From Nitrospirales bacterium (lineage in GTDB: Bacteria; Nitrospirota; Nitrospiria; Nitrospirales; UBA8639): a stretch of 64,000 nucleotides of DNA. The notes beneath the pieces are model-generated. The model was not told the DNA's origin and did no database searches. It was given only the letters and a program-made list of their open reading frames with translations. Below are positions 37,029 through 64,000 of this stretch, in pieces (the first letter of the stretch is position 1; the number at the start of each line of letters is the position of its first letter). The stretch is from the NCBI GenBank assembly GCA_963555755.3, contig OY820905.2, positions 2,112,001 to 2,176,000 of the forward strand, written 5' to 3'. Made by a program: the position numbers and the translations under genes.

Positions 37029-38870
<1,842 letters not shown>

Positions 38871-47870: not shown

Positions 47871-47912
47871 GGTTAGGGGTCAGGTTAGGGTCAGGTTAGG
47901 GGTCAGGTTAGG
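47871..47912 (+). repeat. GGTTAGGG(G)TCA tandem array, outer part of a Y1-element left end
   Basis: 3.5 units; rejoins to GGTCAAGTCACTTGCTTCA at 54641 when the intron is removed. Confidence 0.85.
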
Positions 47913-48016
47913 GTAGAGTAGAGCACTGGTGCATACATGGAGCTGCTCTCGAACGCTTCGACGCACGCGTCTACCACGGACCATAGCAGTCAGCACTTCC
48001 CAGCGCCCCCTCATCA

Positions 48017-50010
48017 GTAGGGTCGAGGACTGGCGCGCCAACGGTAGGGTTCGGTGGCTCCTCCACCCCTTTCGGAATGGGCCTCAGTCCGACTCCCCTG
48101 GTCACGGTTCCAGTCCCCGCCACCTCAAACCCGGCGTGCTGATTTCCAGCACCGGGCTTTCCTGGATGCTTCACCTCAAGGGTTATGTGACCTATCAGCC
48201 TGGAAGGACTTTCATGCCGACCCGTTGTACCGCACTCGGTAATCTCCATATAAGCCAAGTACCGTGTAGAGCCAAACCTTACTCCACCTCTTCCAGCCAA
48301 AACCTCGACGGTGGCGCACTCGCATCATGTGCCGCCGGACCTTCCGCTCCACCCAATCCTTCACGTAGGATAAACACCGACTCGCATGCCCAATCCGGAA
48401 GTCGTTCACCCAGCCCCGTACGATCGGATTGATCATGGCGATCATCCGTCCCACCGGCTGGGATTGCCCGCGTCGGAACACTTCCTTGAGCTTCCGCAGC
48501 AACGCGGTGCGCCGCTTCACCTTCGGTATGTACTGCGGGCGCCACACTCCACGCCGCGACCGCACACGCCGAAAGTCAAAGCCCAGAAAGCCGAAGCTGC
48601 CTCCCTGACTCAGGTCCACGATTCGGCTCTTCTCCTCATTCACCTGAAGGTCTAATTGGGCCAACGCCTCTCGCAGCTTCCGCTCCGCAACCTGCGCCAG
48701 TTGTGCGTGGCGGCGATAGCCATCCACTAACACGACGAGGTCATCCGCAAACCGGACATACTCGAGATACGTATACTGGCCCTGCCGGGTTGTCTCCTTC
48801 AGCTGCTCCAGCCTCTCATCCACTTCCGTGAGATAGAGGTTGGCCAGCAGCGGGGAAATCACACCCCCTTGAGGCACCCCACGCGGGCCGGACGCCTTGA
48901 CGATGAGTTTCACCAGCCGCAGGATCGCGGGATCCTGGATGCGTCGGGCCACCTTCGCCAGCAGCCGGTCATGCCGCACCGTGTCGAAGAAGGCCGCCAG
49001 ATCCACATCAATCACTCGCGTCTTGTTCTGCACCATCGCCTGAGCCACCCGGCCAATCGCCTGATGGGCTGTCCGTTTCGGTCGATACCCATACGACCCG
49101 TCCCGAAAATCCGCCTCAAAGATCGGTTCCAGCAGGAGCTTGAGCGCTCCCTGTACCACGCGGTCCCGAATCGCGGGTATCCCTAAGACGCGGACTCGTC
49201 CACCGCCTTTCGAAATCTCCACGTGCCGGTTCCGCATCGGTCGGTAGGTCTGCGTGACCAGTTCGTCCCGTAGTCGTGCAAGAAAGGGCTCCACCCCCGT
49301 GGCCTCGATGCCAGCAAACGTCACCCCATCAATGCCGGGGGCTCCGTTGTTTTTCTTGGCCATCGAATAGGCCGCGCGTAGCGTCGCCTCTTTGCACACG
49401 TGGACGTACAAGCCCCACACCCGCCATCGCTTCTCAGCCTTCGCCTTGACGTAGAGCCGCTGTCGCAGGTCTTGCAGTGTAATGGACGCCGTTGTCATCT
49501 CGTCCCTGCCTCCCATGTTGATCACAGCCTACAGCCAGTAGGGCTCCTTTGCTCCACAGGCATGACCCTGCTTCCTCGCTCCTACGAGCCCCTCCGCCAC
49601 CCTCTCGTCTTCGGCTCACTTCCCAGAGAGCTGGTTATAGAGCCGATCTTCCTCCAGGGATTTCTCCCTGGGACGAGGAGGGCTTCTCCAGTTGCGTCGT
49701 CTGTCCTTGCTCCCGTGCTGTCGCTCTCACCCCGCCGGAGTGGCCAGGCGTCTCAGCCTTGGTTCGCCTGTCCATGCCGTCTTCGTCCTACGGACAGGGA
49801 CTCGACCTCCGAGGTTTCATACTTTCGAGGCTACCTCTGCGTTCACTTGCGTTACGGCCCGGGAACTCGCTCACCATCCTCTACGATGGCTTTGTCGATG
49901 GGCTTCAGCGTCTCGGTTTCTCTCCACGCTGCCATCCAAGCTACAGGGCTCAGGCTCTTACCCTGGTGGGCTTGCTTCCCACTGAACAGTCTCGCCTTAC
50001 CTGGACACAC
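48017..50010 (-). mobile_element. Group II intron, tandem copy A (1994 bp)
   Basis: 5' GTGTG, DV AAGCCCGGTGCTGGAAATCAGCACGCCGGGTTT, 3' CGACCCTAC. Confidence 0.93.
48212..49525 (-). CDS. ltrA: Group II intron reverse transcriptase/maturase, no endonuclease domain
   Basis: GAPGIDG, LGIPAIRDRVVQ, SYGYRP, GVPQGGVISPLLANLYL, RFADD, FLGF, domain X. Confidence 0.95.
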   Translation of the reverse strand: MINMGGRDEMTTASITLQDLRQRLYVKAKAEKRWRVWGLYVHVCKEATLRAAYSMAKKNNGAPGIDGVTFAGIEATGVEPFLARLRDELVTQTYRPMRNRHVEISKGGGRVRVLGIPAIRDRVVQGALKLLLEPIFEADFRDGSYGYRPKRTAHQAIGRVAQAMVQNKTRVIDVDLAAFFDTVRHDRLLAKVARRIQDPAILRLVKLIVKASGPRGVPQGGVISPLLANLYLTEVDERLEQLKETTRQGQYTYLEYVRFADDLVVLVDGYRRHAQLAQVAERKLREALAQLDLQVNEEKSRIVDLSQGGSFGFLGFDFRRVRSRRGVWRPQYIPKVKRRTALLRKLKEVFRRGQSQPVGRMIAMINPIVRGWVNDFRIGHASRCLSYVKDWVERKVRRHMMRVRHRRGFGWKRWSKVWLYTVLGLYGDYRVRYNGSA

Positions 50011-52004
50011 GTAGGGTCGAGGACTGGCGCGCCAACGGTAGGGTTCGGTGGCTCCTCCACCCCTTTCGGAATGGGCCTCAGTCCGACTCCCCTGGTCACG
50101 GTTCCAGTCCCCGCCACCTCAAACCCGGCGTGCTGATTTCCAGCACCGGGCTTTCCTGGATGCTTCACCTCAAGGGTTATGTGACCTATCAGCCTGGAAG
50201 GACTTTCATGCCGACCCGTTGTACCGCACTCGGTAATCTCCATATAAGCCAAGTACCGTGTAGAGCCAAACCTTACTCCACCTCTTCCAGCCAAAACCTC
50301 GACGGTGGCGCACTCGCATCATGTGCCGCCGGACCTTCCGCTCCACCCAATCCTTCACGTAGGATAAACACCGACTCGCATGCCCAATCCGGAAGTAGTT
50401 CACCCAGCCCCGTACGATCGGATTGATCATGGCGATCATCCGTCCCACCGGCTGGGATTGCCCGCGTCGGAACACTTCCTTGAGCTTCCGCAGCAACGCG
50501 GTGCGCCGCTTCACCTTCGGTATGTACTGCGGGCGCCACACTCCACGCCGCGACCGCACACGCCGAAAGTCAAAGCCCAGAAAGCCGAAGCTGCCTCCCT
50601 GACTCAGGTCCACGATTCGGCTCTTCTCCTCATTCACCTGAAGGTCTAATTGGGCCAACGCCTCTCGCAGCTTCCGCTCCGCGACCTGCGCCAGTTGTGC
50701 GTGGCGGCGATAGCCATCCACTAACACGACGAGGTCATCCGCAAACCGGACATACTCGAGATACGTATACTGGCCCTGCCGGGTTGTCTCCTTCAGCTGC
50801 TCCAGCCTCTCATCCACTTCCGTGAGATAGAGGTTGGCCAGCAGCGGGGAAATCACACCCCCTTGAGGCACCCCACGCGGGCCGGACGCCTTGACGATGA
50901 GTTTCACCAGCCGCAGGATCGCGGGATCCTGGATGCGTCGGGCCACCTTCGCCAGCAGCCGGTCATGCCGCACCGTGTCGAAGAAGGCCGCCAGATCCAC
51001 ATCAATCACTCGCGTCTTGTTCTGCACCATCGCCTGAGCCACCCGGCCAATCGCCTGGTGGGCTGTCCGTTTCGGTCGATACCCATACGACCCATCACGA
51101 AAATCCGCCTCAAAGATCGGTTCCAGCAGGAGCTTGAGCGCTCCCTGTACCACGCGGTCCCGAATCGCGGGTATCCCTAAGACGCGGACTCGTCCACCGC
51201 CTTTCGAAATCTCCACGTGCCGGTTCCGCATCGGTCGGTAGGTCTGCGTGACCAGTTCGTCCCGTAGTCGTGCAAGAAAGGGCTCCACCCCCGTGGCCTC
51301 GATGCCAGCAAACGTCACCCCATCAATGCCGGGGGCTCCGTTGTTTTTCTTGGCCATCGAATAGGCCGCGCGTAGCGTCGCCTCTTTGCACACGTGGACG
51401 TACAGGCCCCACACCCGCCATCGCTTCTCAGCCTTCGCCTTGACGTAGAGCCGCTGTCGCAGGTCTTGCAGTGTAATGGACGCCGTTGTCATCTCGTCCC
51501 TGCCTCCCATGTTGATCACAGCCTACAGCCAGTAGGGCTCCTTTGCTCCACAGGCATGACCCTGCTTCCTCGCTCCTACGAGCCCCTCCGCCACCCTCTC
51601 GTCTTCGGCTCACTTCCCAGAGAGCTGGTTATAGAGCCGATCTTCCTCCAGGGATTTCTCCCTGGGACGAGGAGGGCTTCTCCAGTTGCGTCGTCTGTCC
51701 TTGCTCCCGTGCTGTCGCTCTCACCCCGCCGGAGTGGCCAGGCGTCTCAGCCTTGGTTCGCCTGTCCATGCCGTCTTCGTCCTACGGACAGGGACTCGAC
51801 CTCCGAGGTTTCATACTTTCGAGGCTACCTCTGCGTTCACTTGCGTTACGGCCCGGGAACTCGCTCACCATCCTCTACGATGGCTTTGTCGATGGGCTTC
51901 AGCGTCTCGGTTTCTCTCCACGCTGCCATCCAAGCTACAGGGCTCAGGCTCTTACCCTGGTGGGCTTGCTTCCCACTGAACAGTCTCGCCTTACCTGGAC
52001 ACAC
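50011..52004 (-). mobile_element. Group II intron, tandem copy B
   Basis: Directly abuts copies A and C (..CCCTAC|GTGTG..). Confidence 0.93.
50206..51519 (-). CDS. ltrA: Group II intron reverse transcriptase/maturase
   Basis: As copy A, but WVNYF instead of WVNDF. Confidence 0.95.
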   Translation of the reverse strand: MINMGGRDEMTTASITLQDLRQRLYVKAKAEKRWRVWGLYVHVCKEATLRAAYSMAKKNNGAPGIDGVTFAGIEATGVEPFLARLRDELVTQTYRPMRNRHVEISKGGGRVRVLGIPAIRDRVVQGALKLLLEPIFEADFRDGSYGYRPKRTAHQAIGRVAQAMVQNKTRVIDVDLAAFFDTVRHDRLLAKVARRIQDPAILRLVKLIVKASGPRGVPQGGVISPLLANLYLTEVDERLEQLKETTRQGQYTYLEYVRFADDLVVLVDGYRRHAQLAQVAERKLREALAQLDLQVNEEKSRIVDLSQGGSFGFLGFDFRRVRSRRGVWRPQYIPKVKRRTALLRKLKEVFRRGQSQPVGRMIAMINPIVRGWVNYFRIGHASRCLSYVKDWVERKVRRHMMRVRHRRGFGWKRWSKVWLYTVLGLYGDYRVRYNGSA

Positions 52005-53998
52005 GTAGGGTCGAGGACTGGCGCGCCAACGGTAGGGGTCGGTGGCTCCTCCACCCCTTTCAGAGTGGGCCTCAATCCGACTCCCCTGGTCACGGTTCCA
52101 GTCCCCGCCACCTCAAACCCGGCGTGCTGATTTCCAGCACCGGGCTTTCCTGGATGCTTCACCTCAAGGGTTATGTGACCTATCAGCCTGGAAGGACTTT
52201 CATGCCGACCCGTTGTACCGCACTCGGTAATCTCCATATAAGCCAAGTACCGTGTAGAGCCAAACCTTACTCCACCTCTTCCAGCCAAAACCTCGACGGT
52301 GGCGCACTCGCATCATGTGCCGCCGGACCTTCCGCTCCACCCAATCCTTCACGTAGGATAAACACCGACTCGCATGCCCAATCCGGAAGTAGTTCACCCA
52401 GCCCCGTACGATCGGATTGATCATGGCGATCATCCGTCCCACCGGCTGGGATTGCCCGCGTCGGAACACTTCCTTGAGCTTCCGCAGCAACGCGGTGCGC
52501 CGCTTCACCTTCGGTATGTACTGCGGGCGCCACACTCCACGCCGCGACCGCACACGCCGAAAGTCAAAGCCCAGAAAGCCGAAGCTGCCTCCCTGACTCA
52601 GGTCCACGATCCGGCTCTTCTCCTCATTCACCTGAAGGTCTAATTGGGCCAACGCCTCTCGCAGCTTCCGCTCCGCAACCTGCGCCAGTCGTGCGTGGCG
52701 GCGATAGCCATCCACTAACACGACGAGGTCATCCGCAAACCGGACATACTCGAGATACGTATACTGGCCCTGCCGGGTTGTCTCCTTCAGCTGCTCCAGC
52801 CTCTCATCCACTTCCGTGAGATAGAGGTTGGCCAGCAGCGGGGAAATCACACCCCCTTGAGGCACCCCACGCGGGCCGGACGCCTTGACGATGAGTTTCA
52901 CCAGCCGCAGGATCGCGGGATCCTGGATGCGTCGGGCCACCTTCGCCAGCAGCCGGTCATGCCGCACCGTGTCGAAGAAGGCCGCCAGATCCACATCAAT
53001 CACTCGCGTCTTGTTCTGCACCATCGCCTGAGCCACCCGGCCAATCGCCTGATGGGCTGTCCGTTTCGGTCGATACCCATACGACCCGTCCCGAAAATCC
53101 GCCTCAAAGATCGGTTCCAGCAGGAGCTTGAGCGCTCCCTGTACCACGCGGTCCCGAATCGCGGGTATCCCTAAGACGCGGACTCGTCCACCGCCTTTCG
53201 AAATCTCCACGTGCCGGTTCCGCATCGGTCGGTAGGTCTGCGTGACCAGTTCGTCCCGTAGTCGTGCAAGAAAGGGCTCCACCCCCGTGGCCTCGATGCC
53301 AGCAAACGTCACCCCATCAATGCCGGGGGCTCCGTTGTTCTTCTTCGCCATCGCATAGGCCGCGCGTAGCGTCGCCTCTTTGCACACGTGGACGTACAGG
53401 CCCCACACCCGCCATCGCTTCTCAGCCTTCGCCTTGACGTAGAGCCGCTGTCGCAGGTCTTGCAGTGTAATGGACGCCGTTGTCATCTCGTCCCTGCCTC
53501 CCATGTTGATCACAGCCTACAGCCAGTAGGGCTCCTTTGCTCCACAGGCATTACCCTGCTTCCTCGCTCCTACGAGCCCCTCCGCCACCCTCTCGTCTTC
53601 GACTCACTTCCCAGAGAGCTGGTTATAGAGCCGATCTTCCTCCAGGGATTTCTCCCTGGGACGAGGAGGGCTTCTCCAGTTGCGTCGTCTGTCCTTGCTC
53701 CCGTGCTGTCGCTCTCACCCCGCCGGAGTGGCCAGGCGTCTCAGCCTTGGTTCGCCTGTCCATGCCGTCTTCGTCCTACGGACAGGGACTCGACCTCCGA
53801 GGTTTCATACTTTCGAGGCTACCTCTGCGTTCACTTGCGTTACGGCCCGGGAACTCGCTCACCATCCTCTACGATGGCTTTGTCGATGGGCTTCAGCGTC
53901 TCGGTTTCTCTCCACGCTGCCATCCAAGCTACAGGGCTCCGGCTCTTACCCTGGTGGGCTTGCTTCCCACTGAACAGTCTCGCCTTACCTGGACACAC
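52005..53998 (-). mobile_element. Group II intron, tandem copy C
   Basis: Its 5' end abuts the host intron DV hairpin. Confidence 0.93.
52200..53513 (-). CDS. ltrA: Group II intron reverse transcriptase/maturase
   Basis: As copy B, with AAYAM and HARLA variants. Confidence 0.95.
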   Translation of the reverse strand: MINMGGRDEMTTASITLQDLRQRLYVKAKAEKRWRVWGLYVHVCKEATLRAAYAMAKKNNGAPGIDGVTFAGIEATGVEPFLARLRDELVTQTYRPMRNRHVEISKGGGRVRVLGIPAIRDRVVQGALKLLLEPIFEADFRDGSYGYRPKRTAHQAIGRVAQAMVQNKTRVIDVDLAAFFDTVRHDRLLAKVARRIQDPAILRLVKLIVKASGPRGVPQGGVISPLLANLYLTEVDERLEQLKETTRQGQYTYLEYVRFADDLVVLVDGYRRHARLAQVAERKLREALAQLDLQVNEEKSRIVDLSQGGSFGFLGFDFRRVRSRRGVWRPQYIPKVKRRTALLRKLKEVFRRGQSQPVGRMIAMINPIVRGWVNYFRIGHASRCLSYVKDWVERKVRRHMMRVRHRRGFGWKRWSKVWLYTVLGLYGDYRVRYNGSA

Positions 53999-54701
53999 AT
54001 CCGTGCGTATGGTTTTCCCATACACGGCTTTCCGATGTTCTTCTTCCAGCGGCATGCGTCTGTCATCAGGCAATAGCCACATTCAGACTTGGCCTTCTGA
54101 GATAGTTTCCTCTGTAGTGTCCTGATCGTGCTCGGGGTGGTTAGCGCAATGGCAATCCCCTGATCCTCCACTCGTCGGAAACGTGAACAAAGTAGGGTCC
54201 CTTCCCTCGGGCCGGGTTGTGTTGTCCCAGGCTCTCCAACGGTACTATGAACCCCTCCGACTCCCACGACGGCCCGCAGCGATTTCGGTATCCCTTATAC
54301 GCCTCAGTTGCTGGTTCTGCGCCAGCACCGTCGCGGGTCTCCCGTCCTGCACGGTGTCTCTTCCGCCACATGCCATCCCTGCTACCCCGGAAGATCCTGA
54401 GGGTGGGTGTTCGTTCTACTCCCTCAAACGGCGGCCTTCCCCTTCTGACCACAGGGTCGGCATCTCCAATTCGTTTACGAGGCTACATCTAGGTTCGCTT
54501 GCGCTACGGCCTGCGGCTTTGCCCATGGGAAACTTCAACCCCTGATTACTCAGACGCTGCTTCCTGGTGCTAGAAAGGTGTACGAACAACTCCTTTCGCG
54601 GGACTTCAACCCGCTAGACACACCGCCGATGACGGCATGCGGTCAAGTCACTTGCTTCATGATAAAGAAAAGGAAAAGGGGTCAGAAAAGGGGTCAGAAA
54701 A

Positions 54702-55734
54702 GGGGTCAAGTCACTTGCTTCATGATAAAAAAGTAGTTAGACTCTGGTCATGCCTCGACCTCCTCGGATGGAATACGAGCATGCGGTGTATCATGTCATG
54801 AATCGTGGCCGGGCTCGGCACCCGGTGTTTCATGATGCCCGGTACTATCGAGCCTTTCTCGACACGTTGGCCGAGCTGCATACCCGCTTCCAGGGTGTGA
54901 TTCATGCCTATTGCTTGATGGGCAATCACTATCATGTCTTGCTGGAAACTCCCAGGGCCAATCTCAGTCGCATGATGCGCCATCTTAACGGGGTGTATAC
55001 GCAACGGCATAATCGTCTCAAACGTACTGATGGCTCTTTGTTTCGAGGCCGCTATAAAGCCATTTTGGTGGAGCACGATGCCTATTTGCTCCACGTGTCC
55101 CGGTATATCCATCGAAACCCTCTTGACGGCATACGGCCGCTGGTCACGAATTTGTCTGATTATCCCTGGTCGAGCTATCCGACATATATCGGTCAAGCGA
55201 AGCCGGCACCGTGGTTGTGCCGGGAACCGACGTATCGCCTGCTTGGGCATGTGCACCGGTATCGCGGGTATGCTCGCTACGTGCTAGAGGGCAACGATAA
55301 AGAAATCGAGTATTTTTCCCAACGGGGTAATAGGGCGGCCATTATGGGAGGGCAGGAGTTCAAATCTTGGGTCTATGACGAATTACTGCCGGATCTTGAA
55401 GCGGAGGAGAAAGGGCAGGTGATCCAGCCGAGTCTTGCAATCGACACTATGATCACTGGGGTGGCCAAGGCCTATCGCACGACACCAGACCGGCTGACCA
55501 TGGTAGTGAAAGGGCCGCAAAAAGGGAATGAGGCTCGGAAACTGGCGATGTATCTGTGTCAGGAATTAGCGGATGTGAAACTTCAGGACATTGCGCCCTG
55601 CTTCCATCTGCGTCATAGCGGTTCGGTGAGTTTTATCACCCACCAGGTCAGAAAGAAGAAACGAGACGAGAAGGGATTTGCCGCTAGAATGAACGAGGTG
55701 ATTGAAAGTATTCTGAAGCAATCGACTTGACCCC
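54702..55734 (+). mobile_element. TIR-bounded HUH/Y1 (RAYT-like) element, copy 1
   Basis: Left GGGGTCAAGTCACTTGCTTCA and right TGAAGCAATCGACTTGACCCC are inverted at 19/21 positions; GAAAAGGGGTCA x3 on the left. Confidence 0.88.
54750..55730 (+). CDS. Y1/HUH (RAYT-like) transposase with C-terminal DnaA-like HTH
   Basis: YHVMNRG, YCLMGNHYH (HUH), LFRGRYKA, YIHRNP, YPWSSY; C-terminal ARKLAMYLCQE..LQDIAPCF..SVS. Confidence 0.92.
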   Translation: MPRPPRMEYEHAVYHVMNRGRARHPVFHDARYYRAFLDTLAELHTRFQGVIHAYCLMGNHYHVLLETPRANLSRMMRHLNGVYTQRHNRLKRTDGSLFRGRYKAILVEHDAYLLHVSRYIHRNPLDGIRPLVTNLSDYPWSSYPTYIGQAKPAPWLCREPTYRLLGHVHRYRGYARYVLEGNDKEIEYFSQRGNRAAIMGGQEFKSWVYDELLPDLEAEEKGQVIQPSLAIDTMITGVAKAYRTTPDRLTMVVKGPQKGNEARKLAMYLCQELADVKLQDIAPCFHLRHSGSVSFITHQVRKKKRDEKGFAARMNEVIESILKQST

Positions 55735-56190
55735 TATTCGACCCCTATTCTTGACCCCTATTCATAGGGCGGCCATTATGGGAGGGCAGGAGTTCAAATC
55801 TTGGGTCTATGACGAATTACTGCCGGATCTTGAAGCGGAGGAGAAAGGGCAGGTGATCCAGCCGAGTCTTGCAATCGACACTATGATCACTGGGGTGGCC
55901 AAGGCCTATCGCACGACACCAGACCGGCTGACCATGGTAGTGAAAGGGCCGCAAAAAGGGAATGGGGCTCGGAAACTGGCGATGTATCTGTGTCAGGAAT
56001 TAGCGGATGTGAAACTTCAGGACATTGCGCCCTGCTTCCATCTGCGTCATAGCGGTTCGGTGAGTTTTATCACCCACCAGGTCAGAAAGAAGAAACGAGA
56101 CGAGAAGGGATTTGCCGCTAGAATGAACGAGGTGATTGAAAGTATTCTGAAGCAATCGACTTGACCCCTATTTGACTTGACCCCTATTTT
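55735..56190 (+). repeat. 3'-coterminal duplications of the Y1 element end (including a ~400-bp copy of the gene 3' part)
   Basis: GACCCCTATTC units, then 55765-56168 repeats 55330-55734, then GACTTGACCCCTATT. Confidence 0.9.
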
Positions 56191-57812
56191 ATTATGTCAT
56201 AAACAATTTGTAACGTTAATTATAGTACAAAACCTATATTGAGAAATCATTTAGCGATCAAAAAATTGATCAAAATTAATTAAAATTAGCCCTAACAAAG
56301 TGAATTTTCTTATTTTTCCGATCTCCACATTTTGTTCGATTCTTAAATAGTTTATAGTTATACCAGTTTTGTTGAGTGGTCATAGTAGAAGTCAGCTAAT
56401 GTTATTTTTATTAACTTTGACATCTTTAGGATTTCTTGGATTTTTGTCTTATGATGTTTTTGCTGAACCTACATTCACACTTGAGTGGGATGGAACTTCA
56501 CAACATGATAATACCGTAAATGTTGGTGACACTATTGCTTGGGAATGGATTGGTCTTCAACATAATTTAGTATGGGATGACGAAACAGGAGTTCCTCTAC
56601 CTGATCCATCGTTTGGATTTCCAGATATCGTTGATGAACCAAATACCTACGCATTTACATTTACTGAACCTGGAGAATACTATTATCACTGTACAATTCA
56701 TTCAGAGCAATCTGGTGTTGTAACTGTTCTACCGTCGCCTATCACACTTGAGTGGGATGGAACTTCACAACATGATAATACCGTAAATGTTGGTGACACT
56801 ATTGCTTGGGAATGGATTGGTCTTCAACATAATTTAGTATGGGATGACGAAACAGGAGTTCCTCTACCTGATCCATCGTTTGGATTTCCAGATATCGTTG
56901 ATGAACCAAATACCTACGCATTTACATTTACTGAACCTGGAGAATACAACTATCACTGTACAGTCCATGAAGAACAATTTGGAGTTGTAATTGTTGAATC
57001 ATCTGAAGAACCTGTACTTGCTTGGGCTGGATCTTCACAACATGATAATACCGTAAATGTTGGTGATACACTTACTTGGGAATGGGGTGGAAATAGTCAT
57101 AATTTAGTATGGGATCCAGAATCAGGAGTTCCTCTACCTGATCCATCATTTGGATTTCCAGATATTGTTAATGCTCCAAATACATACGCATTTACATTTA
57201 CTGAACCTGGACAATACTTCTATCACTGTGAAGTTCACTCACAACAATTTGGAGTTGTAACTGTTCTACCGCCAGCAAGTTGGCCAAACTGGGGAGGGGA
57301 CTTGTCTAACACAAAGAATGCCTCAACCGAATCTCAACTGTCTCCTGATAATATTGACGCTCTCATAGAAGATTGGATATACACCACTGATGGCTCTGTA
57401 GTTTCATTTGTTACTGTTCAAGGAAATGATGCATACTTTGTTAGTAGAGTAACTCCTGATGGTCAATCTTTTCCTGCAGCAGATGCAATGCTTAATTCTA
57501 TTAATCGTATAACTGGAGAACTCAATTGGGCATTCCCAATTTCAAGTTATGTTGAATCCTCATCTAATCCATCTCTTGTAAATGATGATGCTAGAGTCTC
57601 ACCTGCAATACAAGATGATATTTTAGTTGTGGGTACACAATATGCAGCAAATGGTGCAACTGTCTTTGCAGTTGACAGAAACACTGGCGATGAACTTTGG
57701 GAAACTGCAGTAGATGATCACATATATTCTATAATCACAAGCTCTCCTACAATTTATCAGGATAGAGTCTATGTTGGTGTTTCTTCTCTTGAAGAATTAT
57801 GGGCAGGAATTA

Positions 57813-59399
57813 CCCAAGATCCGCGATGGGTTTGGTCAACAGAGGTCCTTTGGCAAAACCCACGTGTTCGCGCCATTGCTTAGTCAATGGTCTGGCTGGA
57901 TTTGAGCCACCTCCCAGAGTTGCCTGTCCTGACATGGGATCGACCAGCCTTTTGGGCAGACCACTCCCTTCCTGCTTCCTTCTTCTCTTGTGCTGTCCCC
58001 TGCCCCGGCTTAATAAGGCTGGGCAGCTTCTGCACAGCGCGTCCGAATCTCCTCACACAAGCCCCACAGCTGTTGTTGCACTTTGAGGATCACGGCACCA
58101 GCATGCCGGACCACTTTGCCCGCCACCTGATACAGCCGCCAACGCACCGTGCGCACTTGGCACTGGCTCCAGGCATAGGGCAACGCCAACAACTTGAACA
58201 ACACAAACAGGTTGTAGGCTAACACGCCAATGCGAAAGAAGACGGCATTGGCCGCGAAGGTCCCACACGGAAGCCGTTCCATGCCAAAGCCACTCTTCAG
58301 TTCTTTGATGCGATTCTCGCTGGTCTCGCCCCGCTGGTTGTACCATCGTACAATCTCCTCAGGGGTTCCATCTCGGTTCGTCGCAATCAGCGTGTAGCGC
58401 AGGCTGGGGGCCTCGGGGGCAAACAGATCCTGTTGCACGGGCCGTCGCAATACGATGAGGCGAAAGGCTTGCTTGGTCTTCGCCATACAATGTACCGTTT
58501 CAGCGAGATGGCCATCTCGGTAGGGTTGCCACTGGCTCTCAGGGATGGCGGCAATGACGGCCTGCACGGCCGTATCCTGCACGCCCCCAATCGCAAACGT
58601 CACGTTGTGCTCCTCGCACCAATTGAACAACTCCGCTTGGTACGCCGCACTATCCGCCCGCACATGAGCAATCCGTTTGCCTTTGGGCATCTGCGCCGCA
58701 CACGCCTGGGTGAATTCAAGATTGCGGGACGCCGGAGCCTCATTCCCTTCACGAAACTCCTCCCCAAGCACCAGCCCATTTTCCGCCAGGTGCCCCAGCA
58801 TCGGCAGATAGCCTCGCTCCCCCTTGTACGTCCATTTGGCTGCCTGCTTCTCCGCGACAATCTGCGTGGCATCAAGATCGAGGGTATAGTCCGTGCGCGG
58901 TTCCCGCTTCAACGCCCGCCGGATCTGCTGCTGATTGACGACGGCTAAACTTGCTAAACCATCCTTCTCCCCCATGCGTCGCAGCCAATCGCCCGTGGCA
59001 TCGGCACTGGGAACCACGGGGAGTCGCAGCACGGCCCGCAAGCCCGCATCCTCGCGAATCTGGCGCAGATCCTCCAGCGTCCGGCCCCCGCCATGCAACA
59101 TCAGCAGCAGGGGCTCGACAAATTGGGCGGGGTGATAGCCGATGCGGCTCCCGGGCGCGGGCAAGGCCGCATTGAGTTGCCGGGGCACATTCATGGCTTG
59201 GAGAAACTCCCCGAACAGCGCCAGCCCGCCATGAGCGGTGAGCTGTTCGTCGGTGGGCTCAAGCTTGAACGGAAGAACGGTTTGTGGCATCATTCGTTTC
59301 ACCTCGTTGGTGAGGAGTGGCTAAGGGGGTAGGCACCCGTATCTTAGCAAATCAACGAGGTTTTTTTATGCCCAAAATAAATCCATCGCGGATCTTGGG
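57813..59399 (-). mobile_element. IS1380-family element, complete
   Basis: TIRs CCCAAGATCCGCGATGG; 5-bp TSD AATTA at 57808-57812 and 59400-59404. Confidence 0.95.
58010..59302 (-). CDS. IS1380-family transposase
   Basis: LTAHGGL, LDLDAT, VRADSA, YNQRGETSENRIKELK, LAYNL. Confidence 0.93.
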   Translation of the reverse strand: MKRMMPQTVLPFKLEPTDEQLTAHGGLALFGEFLQAMNVPRQLNAALPAPGSRIGYHPAQFVEPLLLMLHGGGRTLEDLRQIREDAGLRAVLRLPVVPSADATGDWLRRMGEKDGLASLAVVNQQQIRRALKREPRTDYTLDLDATQIVAEKQAAKWTYKGERGYLPMLGHLAENGLVLGEEFREGNEAPASRNLEFTQACAAQMPKGKRIAHVRADSAAYQAELFNWCEEHNVTFAIGGVQDTAVQAVIAAIPESQWQPYRDGHLAETVHCMAKTKQAFRLIVLRRPVQQDLFAPEAPSLRYTLIATNRDGTPEEIVRWYNQRGETSENRIKELKSGFGMERLPCGTFAANAVFFRIGVLAYNLFVLFKLLALPYAWSQCQVRTVRWRLYQVAGKVVRHAGAVILKVQQQLWGLCEEIRTRCAEAAQPY

Positions 59400-61365
59400 A
59401 ATTATTCCTGACTATGATTGTTGTACCTTTATTGGTAGTTTAGTGTCCCTTGATTTGAATACTGGTGATATATTGTGGAAATCTTATACTGCACCACTTT
59501 TACCTGAAGGTACACTTCCTAGTGATTGGTATTCAGGTAATGCTGTTTGGGGAAGCTCACCATCAATTGATCCATCACGAAATTCTGTATACATAGCAAC
59601 AGGTAACAACTATCAAACCCCAAATGACTTGGAAGAATGTATTGCAAATGCAGAAACATTACCTACTCCTGAAGAAGTTGAAGCTGCAAAACTGATTTGT
59701 CAAGAAGACATTGATGTTCCAGGAAATCTATTTGATGCTATAGTCTCTTATGATCTTGATACAGGAGATGTAAACTGGGCTAACAAACTATGGAGTTCAG
59801 ACTCTTGGAATGTTGCTTGCTTCTTGGGAGGTGAAAACTGTCCAGATCCATTTGCACCTGACTATGACTTTGGCCAAGCTCCTATGCTCTTTACAGTGTT
59901 TGTAGATGATGACCCAGTAGATCTAGTAGGTTCCGGTCAAAAGAGTGGAATCTTCTGGGCGCTTGATCGTGATATTGGAGAAATTGTTTGGACTGTTAAT
60001 CCTGGACCTGGAAGTACACTTGGAGGTATGCAATGGGGATCAGCAGTTGATGATCAAAGAGTTTATGGTCAAATAACAGGTACTGATGAAGCAGGACCAT
60101 ATACCATTTTTGATTTTGAAGGTACTCCAACTGTAATTACTGGTGGTTCATGGTGGGCAGTAGATGCTGCAACTGGAGAATTACTTTGGCAAACTGCAGC
60201 ACCTGATGGCAGTTTAACATGGGGACAAGTCAGCGTAGCTAATGGATTATTATTTGCTGGAACTTTGGGTAATGCTCAAGATGGTATGATGGTTATTATG
60301 GATGCTGCAACAGGTGATATCCTTTGGACAAAAGACATTGGCGGTTCTGTTTCTGCAGCTCCTACAATTGTTAATGGCCAACTAATCTGGCCAACTGGAT
60401 ATGGAGGCTTTGGCGGTTCTTACAATAATGAAATATTTGCATTTAGTTTAGAATCAATTGGAATTGATTTTGATAATGATGGATTTACTGAAGAAGAAGA
60501 TTGTGATGATAATAATCCTGAGATAAATCCAGATGCATTTGATATTCCAAATAACGGCATTGATGAAAATTGTGATGGAGTAGATGCACAAGGTGGTGGT
60601 GTGGACCTTAGTGGAGTATTAGATGCAATTGAAGATGCAAAGACTATGATACTTGATGCACTAGGATTACTTGATATAAAATTAGATCAAGTTTCTGAAA
60701 AGATTGACAACATTGATACAGGTTCTGATAGTGTAGAACGAGTTTCAGTAACTGTGAAGATGCCAGGTGTTGTAATGAAACCAGGTGAAGTGTTTGTACT
60801 ATTAGATACAACTGGTTCTGGAACTTTAGAAACAGTTCATGTTGCAGTTAATTTACCATGTTCAAAAAATAACGAGCCAAGATTCTCAGTACTGGCAGGA
60901 GTTGCAGGTGGTTCACTAGAACCAGTAATTAGCAGTTCTGATGACTTTACTGGATTTAAGGGACCAAAGAAGACCTGCACATTCCATGATACAATACTTG
61001 CAAGTGAAGTTCCAGGTGGAGAAATTACTGATGTTATTTTAATCAATGATGGAAACAAAAAATCTACTTTACCAAGATATTCAGTAGTAACCATAACTGG
61101 TACATATTCTCCTTGATTTTATTTTTATTAATTTTACGCCTAGATAAAATTAGAGTGTCAATGTGATCTGACAAATCGCCCTCCCAGTGTCATGATTTAA
61201 GGCAAAAATTGTAAGGGTCTTGAACTAACTTGACAAGTCACCTCGAGGGCCTACATTTTTTGGTTAAAGACTCTCACATTACATTTCATTCTAAAATTAG
61301 TGTAAACTTCAGTAAAGCACCCTAGATAAATACGAGATAATTTTATTAAAAAAGGGGTCAAAAAA

Positions 61366-62398
61366 GGGGTCAAGTCACTTGCTTCATGATAAAAAAGTAG
61401 TTAGACTCTGGTCATGCCTCGACCTCCTCGGATGGAATACGAGCATGCGGTGTATCATGTCATGAATCGTGGCCGGGCTCGGCACCCGGTGTTTCATGAT
61501 GCCCGGTACTATCGAGCCTTTCTCGACACGTTGGCCGAGCTGCATACCCGCTTCCAGGGTGTGATTCATGCCTATTGCTTGATGGGCAATCACTATCATG
61601 TCTTGCTGGAAACTCCCAGGGCCAATCTCAGTCGCATGATGCGCCATCTTAACGGGGTGTATACGCAACGGCATAATCGTCTCAAACGTACTGATGGCTC
61701 TTTGTTTCGAGGCCGCTATAAAGCCATTTTGGTGGAGCACGATGCCTATTTGCTCCACGTGTCCCGGTATATCCATCGAAACCCTCTTGACGGCATACGG
61801 CCGCTGGTCACGAATTTGTCTGATTATCCCTGGTCGAGCTATCCGACATATATCGGTCAAGCGAAGCCGGCACCGTGGTTGTGCCGGGAACCGACGTATC
61901 GCCTGCTTGGGCATGTGCACCGGTATCGTGGGTATGCTCGCTACGTGCTAGAGGGCAACGATAAAGAAATCGAGTATTTTTACCAACGGGGCAATAGGGC
62001 GGCCATTATGGGAGGGCAGGAGTTCAAATCTTGGGTCTATGACGAATTACTGCCGGATCTTGAAGCGGAGGAGAAAGGGCAGGTGATCCAGCCGAGTCTT
62101 GCAATCGACACTATTATCACTGGGGTGGCCAAGGCCTATCGCACGACACCAGACCGGCTGACCATGGTAGTGAAAGGGCCGCAAAAAGGGAATGAGGCTC
62201 GGAAACTGGCGATGTATCTGTGTCAGGAATTAGCGGATGTGAAACTTCAGGACATTGCGCCCTGCTTCCATCTGCGTCATAGCGGTTCGGTGAGTTTTAT
62301 CACCCACCAGGTCAGAAAGAAGAAACGAGACGAGAAGGGATTTGCCGCTAGAATGAACGAGGTGATTGAAAGTATTCTGAAGCAATCGACTTGACCCC
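61366..62398 (+). mobile_element. TIR-bounded HUH/Y1 element, copy 2
   Basis: Same TIRs as copy 1; AAAAAGGGGTCA x2 on the left. Confidence 0.88.
61414..62394 (+). CDS. Y1/HUH (RAYT-like) transposase with C-terminal HTH
   Basis: Differs from 54750-55730 at two residues. Confidence 0.92.
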   Translation: MPRPPRMEYEHAVYHVMNRGRARHPVFHDARYYRAFLDTLAELHTRFQGVIHAYCLMGNHYHVLLETPRANLSRMMRHLNGVYTQRHNRLKRTDGSLFRGRYKAILVEHDAYLLHVSRYIHRNPLDGIRPLVTNLSDYPWSSYPTYIGQAKPAPWLCREPTYRLLGHVHRYRGYARYVLEGNDKEIEYFYQRGNRAAIMGGQEFKSWVYDELLPDLEAEEKGQVIQPSLAIDTIITGVAKAYRTTPDRLTMVVKGPQKGNEARKLAMYLCQELADVKLQDIAPCFHLRHSGSVSFITHQVRKKKRDEKGFAARMNEVIESILKQST

Positions 62399-62668
62399 TA
62401 TTGCTGAAGCAATCGACTTGACCCCTATTTCCTATTTTTGACCCCTATTTCTATTTCCTATTTTGACCCCTATTTCTAGAATGAACGAGGTGATTGAAAG
62501 TATTCTGAAGCAATCGACTTGACCCCTATTTCCTATTTTGACCCCTATTTGAAGCAATCGACTTGACCCCTATTTCTATTTCCTATTTTGACCCCTATTT
62601 CTAGAATGAACGAGGTGATTGAAAGTATTCTGGAGCAATCGACTTGACCCCTATTTGACCCCTATTTT
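62391..62668 (+). repeat. Array of 10 TTGACCCCTATT ends made of nested co-terminal copies
   Basis: Units of ~11-55 bp, all finishing GACCCCTATT. Confidence 0.92.
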
Positions 62669-62965
62669 GCCCCCCATACATTGCCTTTGCATAGCGCCAA
62701 GATAATTCACCACCGCCAGTTTCTTCACCGTCAACGTACACTCGCCTAAGTCTTCTTCGACTAAGCCTTCCACGAGATACGGCTTTCCGCCGGTTAGCAC
62801 ATGGCCGTATTTTCGAAAGGTCGCGGGAAAGAACGTGGCATCGTAGAGGCCAGTGAGGTCTTCGAAGGTGGTAAATTCCATGGGCTGGCCGTTGTTCATT
62901 TCAGCAAACTTTTCCGTTATCAACCAGACGACCATTCTGACTTGCTTGCCGGCGTAGCGGTGTAT
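62669..62965 (-). pseudogene. DNA polymerase III alpha (DnaE-type) C-terminal OB-fold fragment
   Basis: GKQVRMVVWLIT..GQPMEFTTFEDLTGLYDATFFP..YLVEGLVE. Confidence 0.7.
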
Positions 62966-63078
62966 CTCCGAGGGTGGACTTGACCGGTGCCTTCCAATGA
63001 ATGCCCCCCCTTTCCATGCAGCCAACGCCAATGGATAATTCTTTTTACGGCAAAAACAAAAACTGGATGGGGGGGGGG

Positions 63079-63513
63079 TTACCGGCGTATGGGAAGACGC
63101 CAATCAGCAAGAAGACGCACATGGCCAAGACGTCCAGCGCGTTTGAAATAATCTCGATCGGCAGTGACATATACTCCATCAGACTGGAGTGCCACCACAT
63201 GGTAACAACTATCATAAAACGTCACCCCTTTGATCTCTCGCATAAGCTGAAGCACCGCTTGACAGTCGTCAACTGTCAGATGAACTTCTGGAAGCTCATA
63301 GTCCAGAAGCGCACTCATCAGTTCAGCAGCAAGTTCAGGTTGTTTCAAACCTAGAACATTCCCAACTTCATAACGCCACAACGTCGGCACCTGAAGGTCA
63401 ATCGCCTCGGAAAGGAACGCCCGTTGAAGCTCAAGAGCCTTCGGAAGATCCTTCCCCTCATCTCGTTCTAGAACCCATTTCAGGATTACAGAGGCATCCG
63501 GCACTACAATCAT
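63079..63513 (-). CDS. vapC: VapC-family PIN-domain toxin
   Basis: VPDASVILKW, YEVGN, TFYDSCY, VTAD. Confidence 0.9.
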   Translation of the reverse strand: MIVVPDASVILKWVLERDEGKDLPKALELQRAFLSEAIDLQVPTLWRYEVGNVLGLKQPELAAELMSALLDYELPEVHLTVDDCQAVLQLMREIKGVTFYDSCYHVVALQSDGVYVTADRDYFKRAGRLGHVRLLADWRLPIRR

Positions 63514-63520
63514 AAGGAAG

Positions 63521-63745
63521 TCACCTTCGTCGATCTCGGCGGACCAAGGCCACAATCTCTTCACTCTTCAACTTGGCGCTTCTAGTGCGCAACTGTTGGA
63601 TTTGTTTCCTCGCGGTTTCACGTTTCCGCCGAAGCAACTCCTTACGTAAGGCCTCATTGATCACCTGACTGCGCTTTCGCGCTGGCACAAGCTTCAGCAG
63701 GTCTTCCCGCACGTCTTCATCAATGGACACATTCATCTTAGGCAT
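63521..63745 (-). CDS. Ribbon-helix-helix antitoxin (VapB-like)
   Basis: KMNVSIDEDV..RSQVINEALR; directly upstream of the PIN gene. Confidence 0.8.
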   Translation of the reverse strand: MPKMNVSIDEDVREDLLKLVPARKRSQVINEALRKELLRRKRETARKQIQQLRTRSAKLKSEEIVALVRRDRRR

Positions 63746-63826
63746 AATCAAGGCTCCTTTCTTTAGATCCTATAATTATAGCATTAAATATGCACCTAAA
63801 AAAGACGCCTAAAAAATTAGAGAAAG

Positions 63827-63924
63827 GGCGTCAGGGCCCATTTTTCCTTACCCAATAGTTCATGGATTCTAGTCAGTATGGCTAGTTATCAATTCTCAAG
63901 AGAGAAGAAAAGGTTCCTGACACC
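63827..63924. mobile_element. ~100-bp mini-element with GG(C/T)GTCAGG inverted ends
   Basis: GGCGTCAGGGCCCATTTTT ... AAAAGGTTCCTGACACC. Confidence 0.5.
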
Positions 63925-64000
63925 TTTTGCCCAAGATGGGTGCGCGGTGATGCACGTTTGTTGATTTGGACCGATAAGGGCCAACTGGTGGACGGTCAGC

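Follow-up and report, generated by a model that had tools for sequence, protein, structure and literature searches.

How did a single AT-rich gene of archaeal appearance come to lie between mobile elements in a Nitrospirales chromosome? The question is raised by a 64,000-nucleotide stretch (the window; GenBank assembly GCA_963555755.3, contig OY820905.2, positions 2,112,001 to 2,176,000), which corresponds to C1:2112001-2176000, C1 being the main contig of the host assembly (G000). Within it a gene, hereafter the cargo, is bounded by TIRtrons, elements with a Y1 transposase, and interrupted by an IS1380-family insertion sequence (IS). The reading favoured here, at a probability of roughly 0.7, is that a foreign and likely Nitrosopumilaceae gene with its own signals was recently lodged between TIRtron ends of the host, was then split by IS1380, and is probably a dead passenger. 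The composition is foreign, the DNA abuts TIRtron ends exactly, the IS is flanked by a target duplication, and the junctions occur in short-read contigs. The transfer would be recent because no other stop or frameshift is present in 1051 codons.

The host assembly comprises 4.62 Mb in 2 contigs at 50.9% GC, is 99.4% complete and contains a bacterial 16S gene. Its nitrite oxidoreductase alpha subunit gives a full-length match to PDB 7b04, suggesting that the host is a nitrite-oxidising, Nitrospira-like bacterium.

Composition and expression signals

Excluding the IS1380, the cargo (56191-61347) consists of 3.56 kb of DNA at 37.4% GC, compared with 50.9% for C1. The N and C parts of the gene each have 38.4% GC, and the upstream and downstream spacers 24% and 32%, respectively. 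GC content at third codon positions (GC3) is 0.176, and the two halves of the gene are the only open reading frames (ORFs) of at least 200 aa on the 4.6-Mb contig with GC3 of 0.27 or less. The abrupt shift to AT-rich DNA with A/T-ending codons, first noted in a sequence-only reading of the window, is therefore borne out. A Markov scan, whose training set contained homologous genes, placed cargo windows among the four highest-ranking of 184 low-GC windows. Removing the IS in silico restores the predicted 1051-aa frame, which is closed by the final stop only.

The expression signals described earlier, namely a TATA-like box, the lack of a clear Shine-Dalgarno motif and a bare T-tract, were all found at their places. 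CTTAAATA lies at 56342-56349 and TTTATA at 56351-56356, and none of GGAG, GAGG, AGGA or GGTG occurs upstream of any of the three candidate starts. As 6% of shuffles yield a TATA-like box in that slot, the box by itself is weak. The T-tract after the stop, with 11 T in 13 nt, appears more telling, a comparable tract being found in 2 of 1728 long C1 ORFs (25-nt window; the set includes the 3' half of the cargo itself). The downstream spacer gave no plasmid match, no Rfam family and no unusual fold (z -1.27), and viral contigs scanned with two alignments and two non-coding motifs gave no match.

AT-rich contigs in four of four short-read runs contain two non-coding stretches of this spacer, 61150-61184 (35 bp, 1 mismatch) and 61209-61256 (up to 48 bp, with 2-3 mismatches), the latter stretch at 7-25x the cargo depth. 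These contigs could belong to a relative of the donor.

Flanking TIRtrons and the IS1380 insertion

The flanking elements, judged by their sequence, are host-family TIRtrons. Their ends carry 21-bp terminal inverted repeats (19 of 21 positions matching) with stuttered end duplications. The GGGGWSAS consensus for TIRtron ends (PMC3733652, 10.1101/279083; as given in the accessible parts of these sources) is matched at 7 of 8 letters in the main repeat and 8 of 8 in the stutter copies. The Y1 core scores 47.7 bits with Pfam Y1_Tnp (2e-12; cut-off 23), with HYH at 60-62 and YIHRNP at 119, and the NCBIfam model REP_Tyr_transpos gives 62.7 bits, below its cut-off of 80. Bac_DnaA_C matches at 5e-6, its 26.8 bits falling short of the 31.5 required by Pfam, and DnaA models match too. 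Relatives of the element occur in 36 of 114 host-family genomes.

The first base of the cargo directly follows one TIRtron right end, and the cargo stops at the next TIRtron left end. The earlier description of a gene between two Y1 elements thus holds, with the correction that its left boundary is formed by an extra partial copy. The stuttered ends may reflect repeated cutting and rejoining at the site. Elsewhere in the genome, TIR-type ends show a weak enrichment beside low-GC DNA (4/74 vs 1.35%). C1 also carries about ten further Y1-family homologs, and a second, stuttered TIR-type repeat family that often forms short inverted pairs (e.g. 1568794, 2217818, 4096379, 4106177).

The split of the gene by an IS1380 with a perfect target duplication is confirmed, AATTA (5 bp) being present at both 57808-57812 and 59400-59404. 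The element combines the features of its family: a transposase over the family cut-off (NF033539, 338 bits; cut-off 180), short terminal repeats, a duplication in the 4-5-bp range and several copies. Six other full-length copies lie on C1 at 99.6-99.9% identity, in flanks of 45-57% GC, the nearest differing by 1 base, and five of the six have their own 5-bp target duplication. Relatives were found in 5 of 114 host-family genomes. The copies at 38216 and 47536, by which the sequence-only reading had placed the gene in this genome, are real but incomplete (90% over 654 bp and 76% over 344 bp), and the six full-length copies are the stronger evidence of residence.

Residence in the chromosome

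In six runs, drawn from 3 samples and 2 studies, 93-96% of the stretch is present, and one sample may be the source of the assembly; six runs with 5-8% of its words were set aside as uninformative. In three of four runs (X7, X8 and X10, from two samples, with the shallow X12 as the exception) a contig at 61221-61391 bridges the right junction, with depths of 89, 171 and 135 compared with 80, 201 and 138 for the cargo. The left junction is bridged in X7 by a contig at 56144-56504, at a depth of 79 against 80 for the cargo; no such contig is among the pieces listed for the other three runs. The near-identical IS copies elsewhere on C1, together with these contigs across the junctions, argue that the DNA resides in this genome, as had been proposed. 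The unspanned junctions and differing coverage expected of a chimeric contig were not seen, junction depth matching that of the cargo. No IS-less joint occurs among the contigs listed for the four runs.

Several observations weigh against this conclusion. Contigs reach only 27-28 bases into the IS1380 on both sides in all four runs, which is under the 31-base bridging rule. Short-read contigs do not span the 1-kb repeats, so that linkage across them rests on the assembly. In sample S8 the right flank stands at a third to half of cargo depth (cargo/flank 201/70 in X8 and 110/57 in X9).

Two rival readings draw on these data. In one, the TIRtron-cargo unit is real but not fixed at this site, being a circle or part of a related strain that was placed here via repeats. 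TIRtron depth of about 5-6x that of the cargo, compared with three full copies assembled, would fit this, as would the under-covered right flank in S8 and the repeats on both sides (TIRtron; many-copy group II introns). However, cargo and right-flank depths agree in samples S7 (80/100, X7) and S9 (45/44, X11), and the stuttered left end peculiar to TIRtron copy 1 has a depth of 103, 214 and 119 in three runs, at the level of the cargo. A non-fixed unit is thus improbable, strain-level rearrangement at the locus is likely, and inter-domain transfer would stand in either case. The other rival holds that the contig is an assembly chimera, in which a gene of an archaeal genome was hit by a bacterial IS and TIRtrons, or was simply mis-joined. 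It could appeal to the abundant AT-rich organisms of the same runs, in which two short non-coding stretches of the cargo recur. Against it, the link to a TIRtron end is covered at either end of the cargo to the same level as the cargo itself, and the contigs listed show neither another flank nor a form free of the IS. In addition, a chromosomal copy of the IS in the host differs by a single base, and the elements, at 53% and 59% GC, have host-family relatives. This reading is largely refuted and less probable than that of a non-fixed unit.

Protein encoded by the cargo

The sequence-only reading had likened the acidic cupredoxin repeats and the C-terminal domain to Nitrosopumilus-like surface proteins. 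The repeats are confirmed by Pfam as three blue-copper repeats, while the protein is better described as a secreted quinoprotein-dehydrogenase-type enzyme than as a surface protein. Each repeat contains HN and C-x2-H-x2-Q, the His/Cys/His ligand pattern (H65/C108/H111) being present in three of three, and there are 10 differences between repeats 1 and 2 over 252 bases. The axial Met of type 1 copper sites is absent, with Gln in its place in all three. Such Gln-axial copper sites are known from stellacyanins. Among PDB entries the best match is amicyanin 2idt, in which the aligned residue is likewise Gln.

Compared with an alignment of 67 sequences, the rejoined pyrroloquinoline quinone (PQQ) propeller conserves 49 of the 50 columns that are invariant and 112 of the 126 that are nearly so. 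Many of its relatives are named 'polyvinyl alcohol dehydrogenase (cytochrome)' by JGI; Pfam and NCBIfam scans found no cytochrome or haem c domain in the cargo protein. The region of the SSLEE Glu, which we take to be a Ca ligand, aligns with a conserved segment of the type II alcohol dehydrogenase 1kb0. A model of the last 170 residues consists of a helix and a beta-sandwich (pLDDT 84.5). As fold searches with this model returned generic jelly-roll matches only (best Z 7.9, none of at least 8), no function can be assigned to the C-terminal domain, and an Atlas search with it gave sub-0.9 matches only.

In the donor, the protein may have acted as a secreted PQQ/Ca alcohol- or polyol-type dehydrogenase whose electrons went to the three blue-copper domains of the same polypeptide, these domains taking the role that haem c would have in bacterial quinohaemoproteins. 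An oligomerisation or surface-display module could then be formed by the coil together with the C-terminal sandwich. The features of the locus are collected in Table 1.

Table 1. Features of the cargo and its flanking elements, in window coordinates
Feature	Position	Strand	Remarks
TIRtron copy 1	54627..55762	+	Y1 (HUH) tyrosine transposase 54750-55730 with DnaA-like C-terminal helix-turn-helix; 53% GC
Partial duplicate of TIRtron 3' part, with right end	55764..56190	+	99.5% over 413 bp to copy 1; abuts cargo
AT-rich upstream spacer	56191..56368	+	TATA-like CTTAAAT 27-30 nt before TTG starts; no Shine-Dalgarno motif
Predicted signal peptide	56369..56464	+	Start TTG 56369, TTG 56372 or ATG 56399; from reading the translation
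Three cupredoxin (type 1 copper) repeats	56465..57274	+	Pfam Copper-bind, 3 stretches
PQQ beta-propeller, 5' part	57278..57812	+	Ends at IS insertion, five codons past conserved SSLEE motif
IS1380-family insertion sequence	57813..59399	-	1587 bp, 59% GC; transposase 58010-59302; 17-bp terminal inverted repeats
PQQ propeller, 3' part (polyvinyl alcohol dehydrogenase-like family)	59404..60450	+	Pfam and family alignment
MopE-type putative metal-binding motif	60499..60585	+	Pfam PF11617, 1.4e-8
Helical linker and C-terminal beta-sandwich domain	60610..61116	+	Stop codon 61114-61116; typical of Nitrosopumilaceae-context secreted proteins
AT-rich downstream spacer	61117..61347	+	T-tract directly after stop
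TIRtron copy 2	61348..62667	+	Transposase 61414-62394, 4 bases from copy 1; long stuttered right end

Origin of the gene

The cargo probably derives from a Nitrosopumilaceae-type (ammonia-oxidising archaeal) donor, on account of the context of its C-terminal relatives, its terminator and promoter anatomy and, weakly, its codon use. For the C-terminal domain, 21 short relatives were found at 45-58% identity, along with 10 longer ones besides the cargo. All 15 metagenome loci carrying the domain (38-53% identical) have 33.6-38.1% GC. When 10 proteins from these loci were looked up, nine were on record and two clusters had a taxon, both archaeal: a neighbour at locus L090 is assigned to Nitrosopumilus sp. 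and one at L095 to a Nitrosopumilaceae archaeon. The Nitrosopumilus-like character that had been proposed for this domain is thereby supported. A LeuRS fragment at L096 scores 253 bits with leuS_arch and 58 bits with leuS_bact. A T-tract like that of the cargo ends eight of nine genes of the Nitrosopumilaceae-context loci (35-nt window), and CTTAAAT stands at -30/-31 in three of ten, two of these being near-identical. In codon use, the Nitrosopumilaceae-context set ranks first of 56 reference sets and the host last.

A nesting among low-GC bacteria, which would have refuted the archaeal reading, was not seen, no named low-GC bacterium being among the close hits. A GTDB contig scan with the C half of the cargo gave MopE-motif matches only. 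Vertical inheritance is argued against by the absence of the PQQ part from 400 other phylum genomes (E 1e-10) and of the cargo DNA from 6 congeners, 3 of which are at least 90% complete.

Relatives with the C-terminal module show some further architectures. P0206 (L092; 1180 aa) combines four cupredoxins with the Gln C-x2-H-x2-Q loop, a GSDH-type PQQ domain and the C-terminal module, which gives the family a second architecture of copper-coupled quinoprotein. P0217 fuses MopE motifs to the C-terminal module, and two standalone relatives of the C-terminal domain have no Pfam family. The Nitrosopumilaceae-context contig L095/L096 also carries ORFs that are presumably VgrG-like and Hcp-like.

Confidence in the donor is high rather than near-complete because the closest propeller relatives carry no taxon name. 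These four proteins, P0004-P0007, are 62-63% identical over 527 aa and form a 100% SH-aLRT clade with the cargo. A number of points count against an archaeal origin. P0004-P0007 have neither taxon name nor genomic context, and they did not stand out when ranked with a signal-peptide profile (places 14-16 of 120). In a quick PQQ tree, which took in 54 of 120 sequences, every named row is bacterial at about 44% identity to the cargo. In codon use, the best AT-rich bacterial locus trails only narrowly (-1.321 vs -1.307 bits), and no full-length homolog with the cargo architecture was found. Distantly related C-terminal domains (23-30% identity) occur in 6 of 300 class genomes, all of genus g11, whose scores were inflated as one g11 protein was in the search alignment. 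The cargo domain falls inside a 96% clade of metagenome proteins; however, an approximately unbiased (AU) test did not reject its grouping with g11 (p=0.43; very long g11 branch). Descent from the g11 proteins is nonetheless disfavoured because of identity (61% vs 23-30%) and GC (38% vs 45-48%). Loci L105-L110 show the family member as a standalone gene of host-like GC in 6 of 19 g11 genomes, a genus of the host family, and possibly represent an older transfer from ammonia-oxidising archaea.

Alternatively, the resident gene could have a bacterial source, either an AT-rich species or a mobile element, in which the Nitrosopumilaceae-type C-terminal module was already in place. The bacterial naming of all named propeller relatives speaks for such a source, as do the small codon margin, the MopE motifs common in AT-rich Bacteroidota, and the Atlas clusters for P0004 at 0.95-0.96, the top two of which are bacterial and the third mostly Nitrososphaerota. 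Yet the named bacterial propellers are only about 44% identical, no relative of the C-terminal domain above 38% was seen in a bacterial context, and the hairpin-less T-tract and TATA placement match archaeal loci. A bacterial donor is unlikely, if marginally less so than a non-fixed unit, and an ammonia-oxidising archaeon remains the preferred source.

Route of acquisition and fate

Free-DNA uptake is possible in this host since a comEC gene was found in its assembly, and archaeal DNA may have entered the cell in this way before being joined at a mobile-element hot spot. Either the Y1 transposase ligated the DNA to the TIRtron ends, or later rearrangements trimmed it to those ends; transposase capture, circle cointegration and trimming of a larger island would all fit the boundaries. 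A host IS1380 would later have split the gene inside its catalytic domain. This split, together with the archaeal-type expression signals, suggests that the broken gene is probably inert and silent in the host.

A bolder proposal is that TIRtrons are capture devices that join incoming single-stranded DNA, here a whole archaeal transcription unit, and that the cargo represents a copper-coupled archaeal quinoprotein dehydrogenase in which Gln-ligated blue-copper repeats replace haem c. It is speculative and rather doubtful.

Genomic surroundings

Insertion sequences and group II introns are dense across the window. Three near-identical tandem group II intron copies at 47900-54630 (maturases at 48212, 50206 and 52200, minus strand) adjoin the left end of TIRtron copy 1, and at least 10 further long copies lie elsewhere on C1. 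The right flank (62651-64000, and L143) holds a diverged duplicate of the dnaE2 3' end and a PIN-domain gene, and neighbours what appears to be a lexA-imuB-dnaE2-like mutagenesis cassette, as named from its ORFs. Searches of the host assembly for pqqC and archaeal amoA gave no match, as was also the case for control genomes with the same searches.

The Markov scan had pointed to a second low-GC island (C1 2658.8-2661.9 kb), which was set aside as phage- or bacterium-like on reading. It lies in a mosaic region of unrelated parts (C1:2652000-2662000): a SEL1-type repeat gene that is frameshifted and has about 70% GC, a tyrosine integrase gene, and a block of 3 kb at 32-42% GC holding short ORFs and a gene that reads as outer-membrane beta-barrel-like.

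Significance and comparison with known systems

If correct, the locus records a recent DNA transfer between two partners of nitrification. It would form a snapshot of transfer in which donor composition and signals are intact, junctions are readable and a host IS dates the event. As the gene is broken, it is evidence of DNA flow and not of adaptation. It further offers a concrete place to ask whether TIRtrons move or capture DNA.

The cargo shares its PQQ propeller with the type II quinohaemoprotein alcohol dehydrogenases and polyvinyl alcohol dehydrogenases (PDB 1kb0, 1kv9), which the intact relative P0004 matches best among solved structures (E 2e-13). Unlike these enzymes, it has no cytochrome c domain and three Gln-axial cupredoxins, and its gene is split by an IS.

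A composite transposon consists of two copies of one IS around passenger genes. The locus is similar in that two near-identical elements in direct orientation surround a single-gene cargo, but differs in its HUH/Y1 rather than DDE chemistry and in being present at one site only, with a single copy in the host assembly and none in 6 congeners. No target duplication was found around the whole TIRtron-cargo unit, whose outer ends are stuttered, the left one abutting a group II intron.

The flanking elements resemble the TIRtrons, or TIRYT, of TnpA-REP subclass 2.1 (RAYT group 1; PMC3733652, 10.1101/279083, PMC5581495), as far as the accessible portions of these papers describe them, in their Y1 transposase with a DnaA-like C-terminal domain, in terminal inverted repeats starting GGGGTCA, and in recent duplicates within one genome. 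They differ from the published elements in their stuttered ends and in the exact enclosure of foreign DNA by two copies in direct repeat. A literature search, with paywalled papers and supplements outside its reach, found no report of passenger DNA in TIRtrons in the text available.

Ammonia-oxidising archaea share habitats with Nitrospirales, sponges being one example (PMC11812461, in its accessible part). Transfer from archaea to bacteria is known in kind, and it is the freshness, the partners and the TIRtron boundaries that are notable here; within the same limits of search, no earlier description of a thaumarchaeal gene recently acquired by a Nitrospirales genome was found. Among nitrifiers, inter-domain transfer like that proposed here has been reported for cynS and focA/nirC, exchanged between ammonia-oxidising archaea and Nitrospira (PMC10753782), and for an archaeal-type ATPase in Nitrospinota (PMC10839748). 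According to the portions of these sources that are accessible, both concern ancient or probable transfers of working genes, the archaea-Nitrospira exchange being inferred from trees. The cargo, in contrast, is unameliorated and still has its donor-type signals; mobile elements form its borders, and its inactivation has already taken place.

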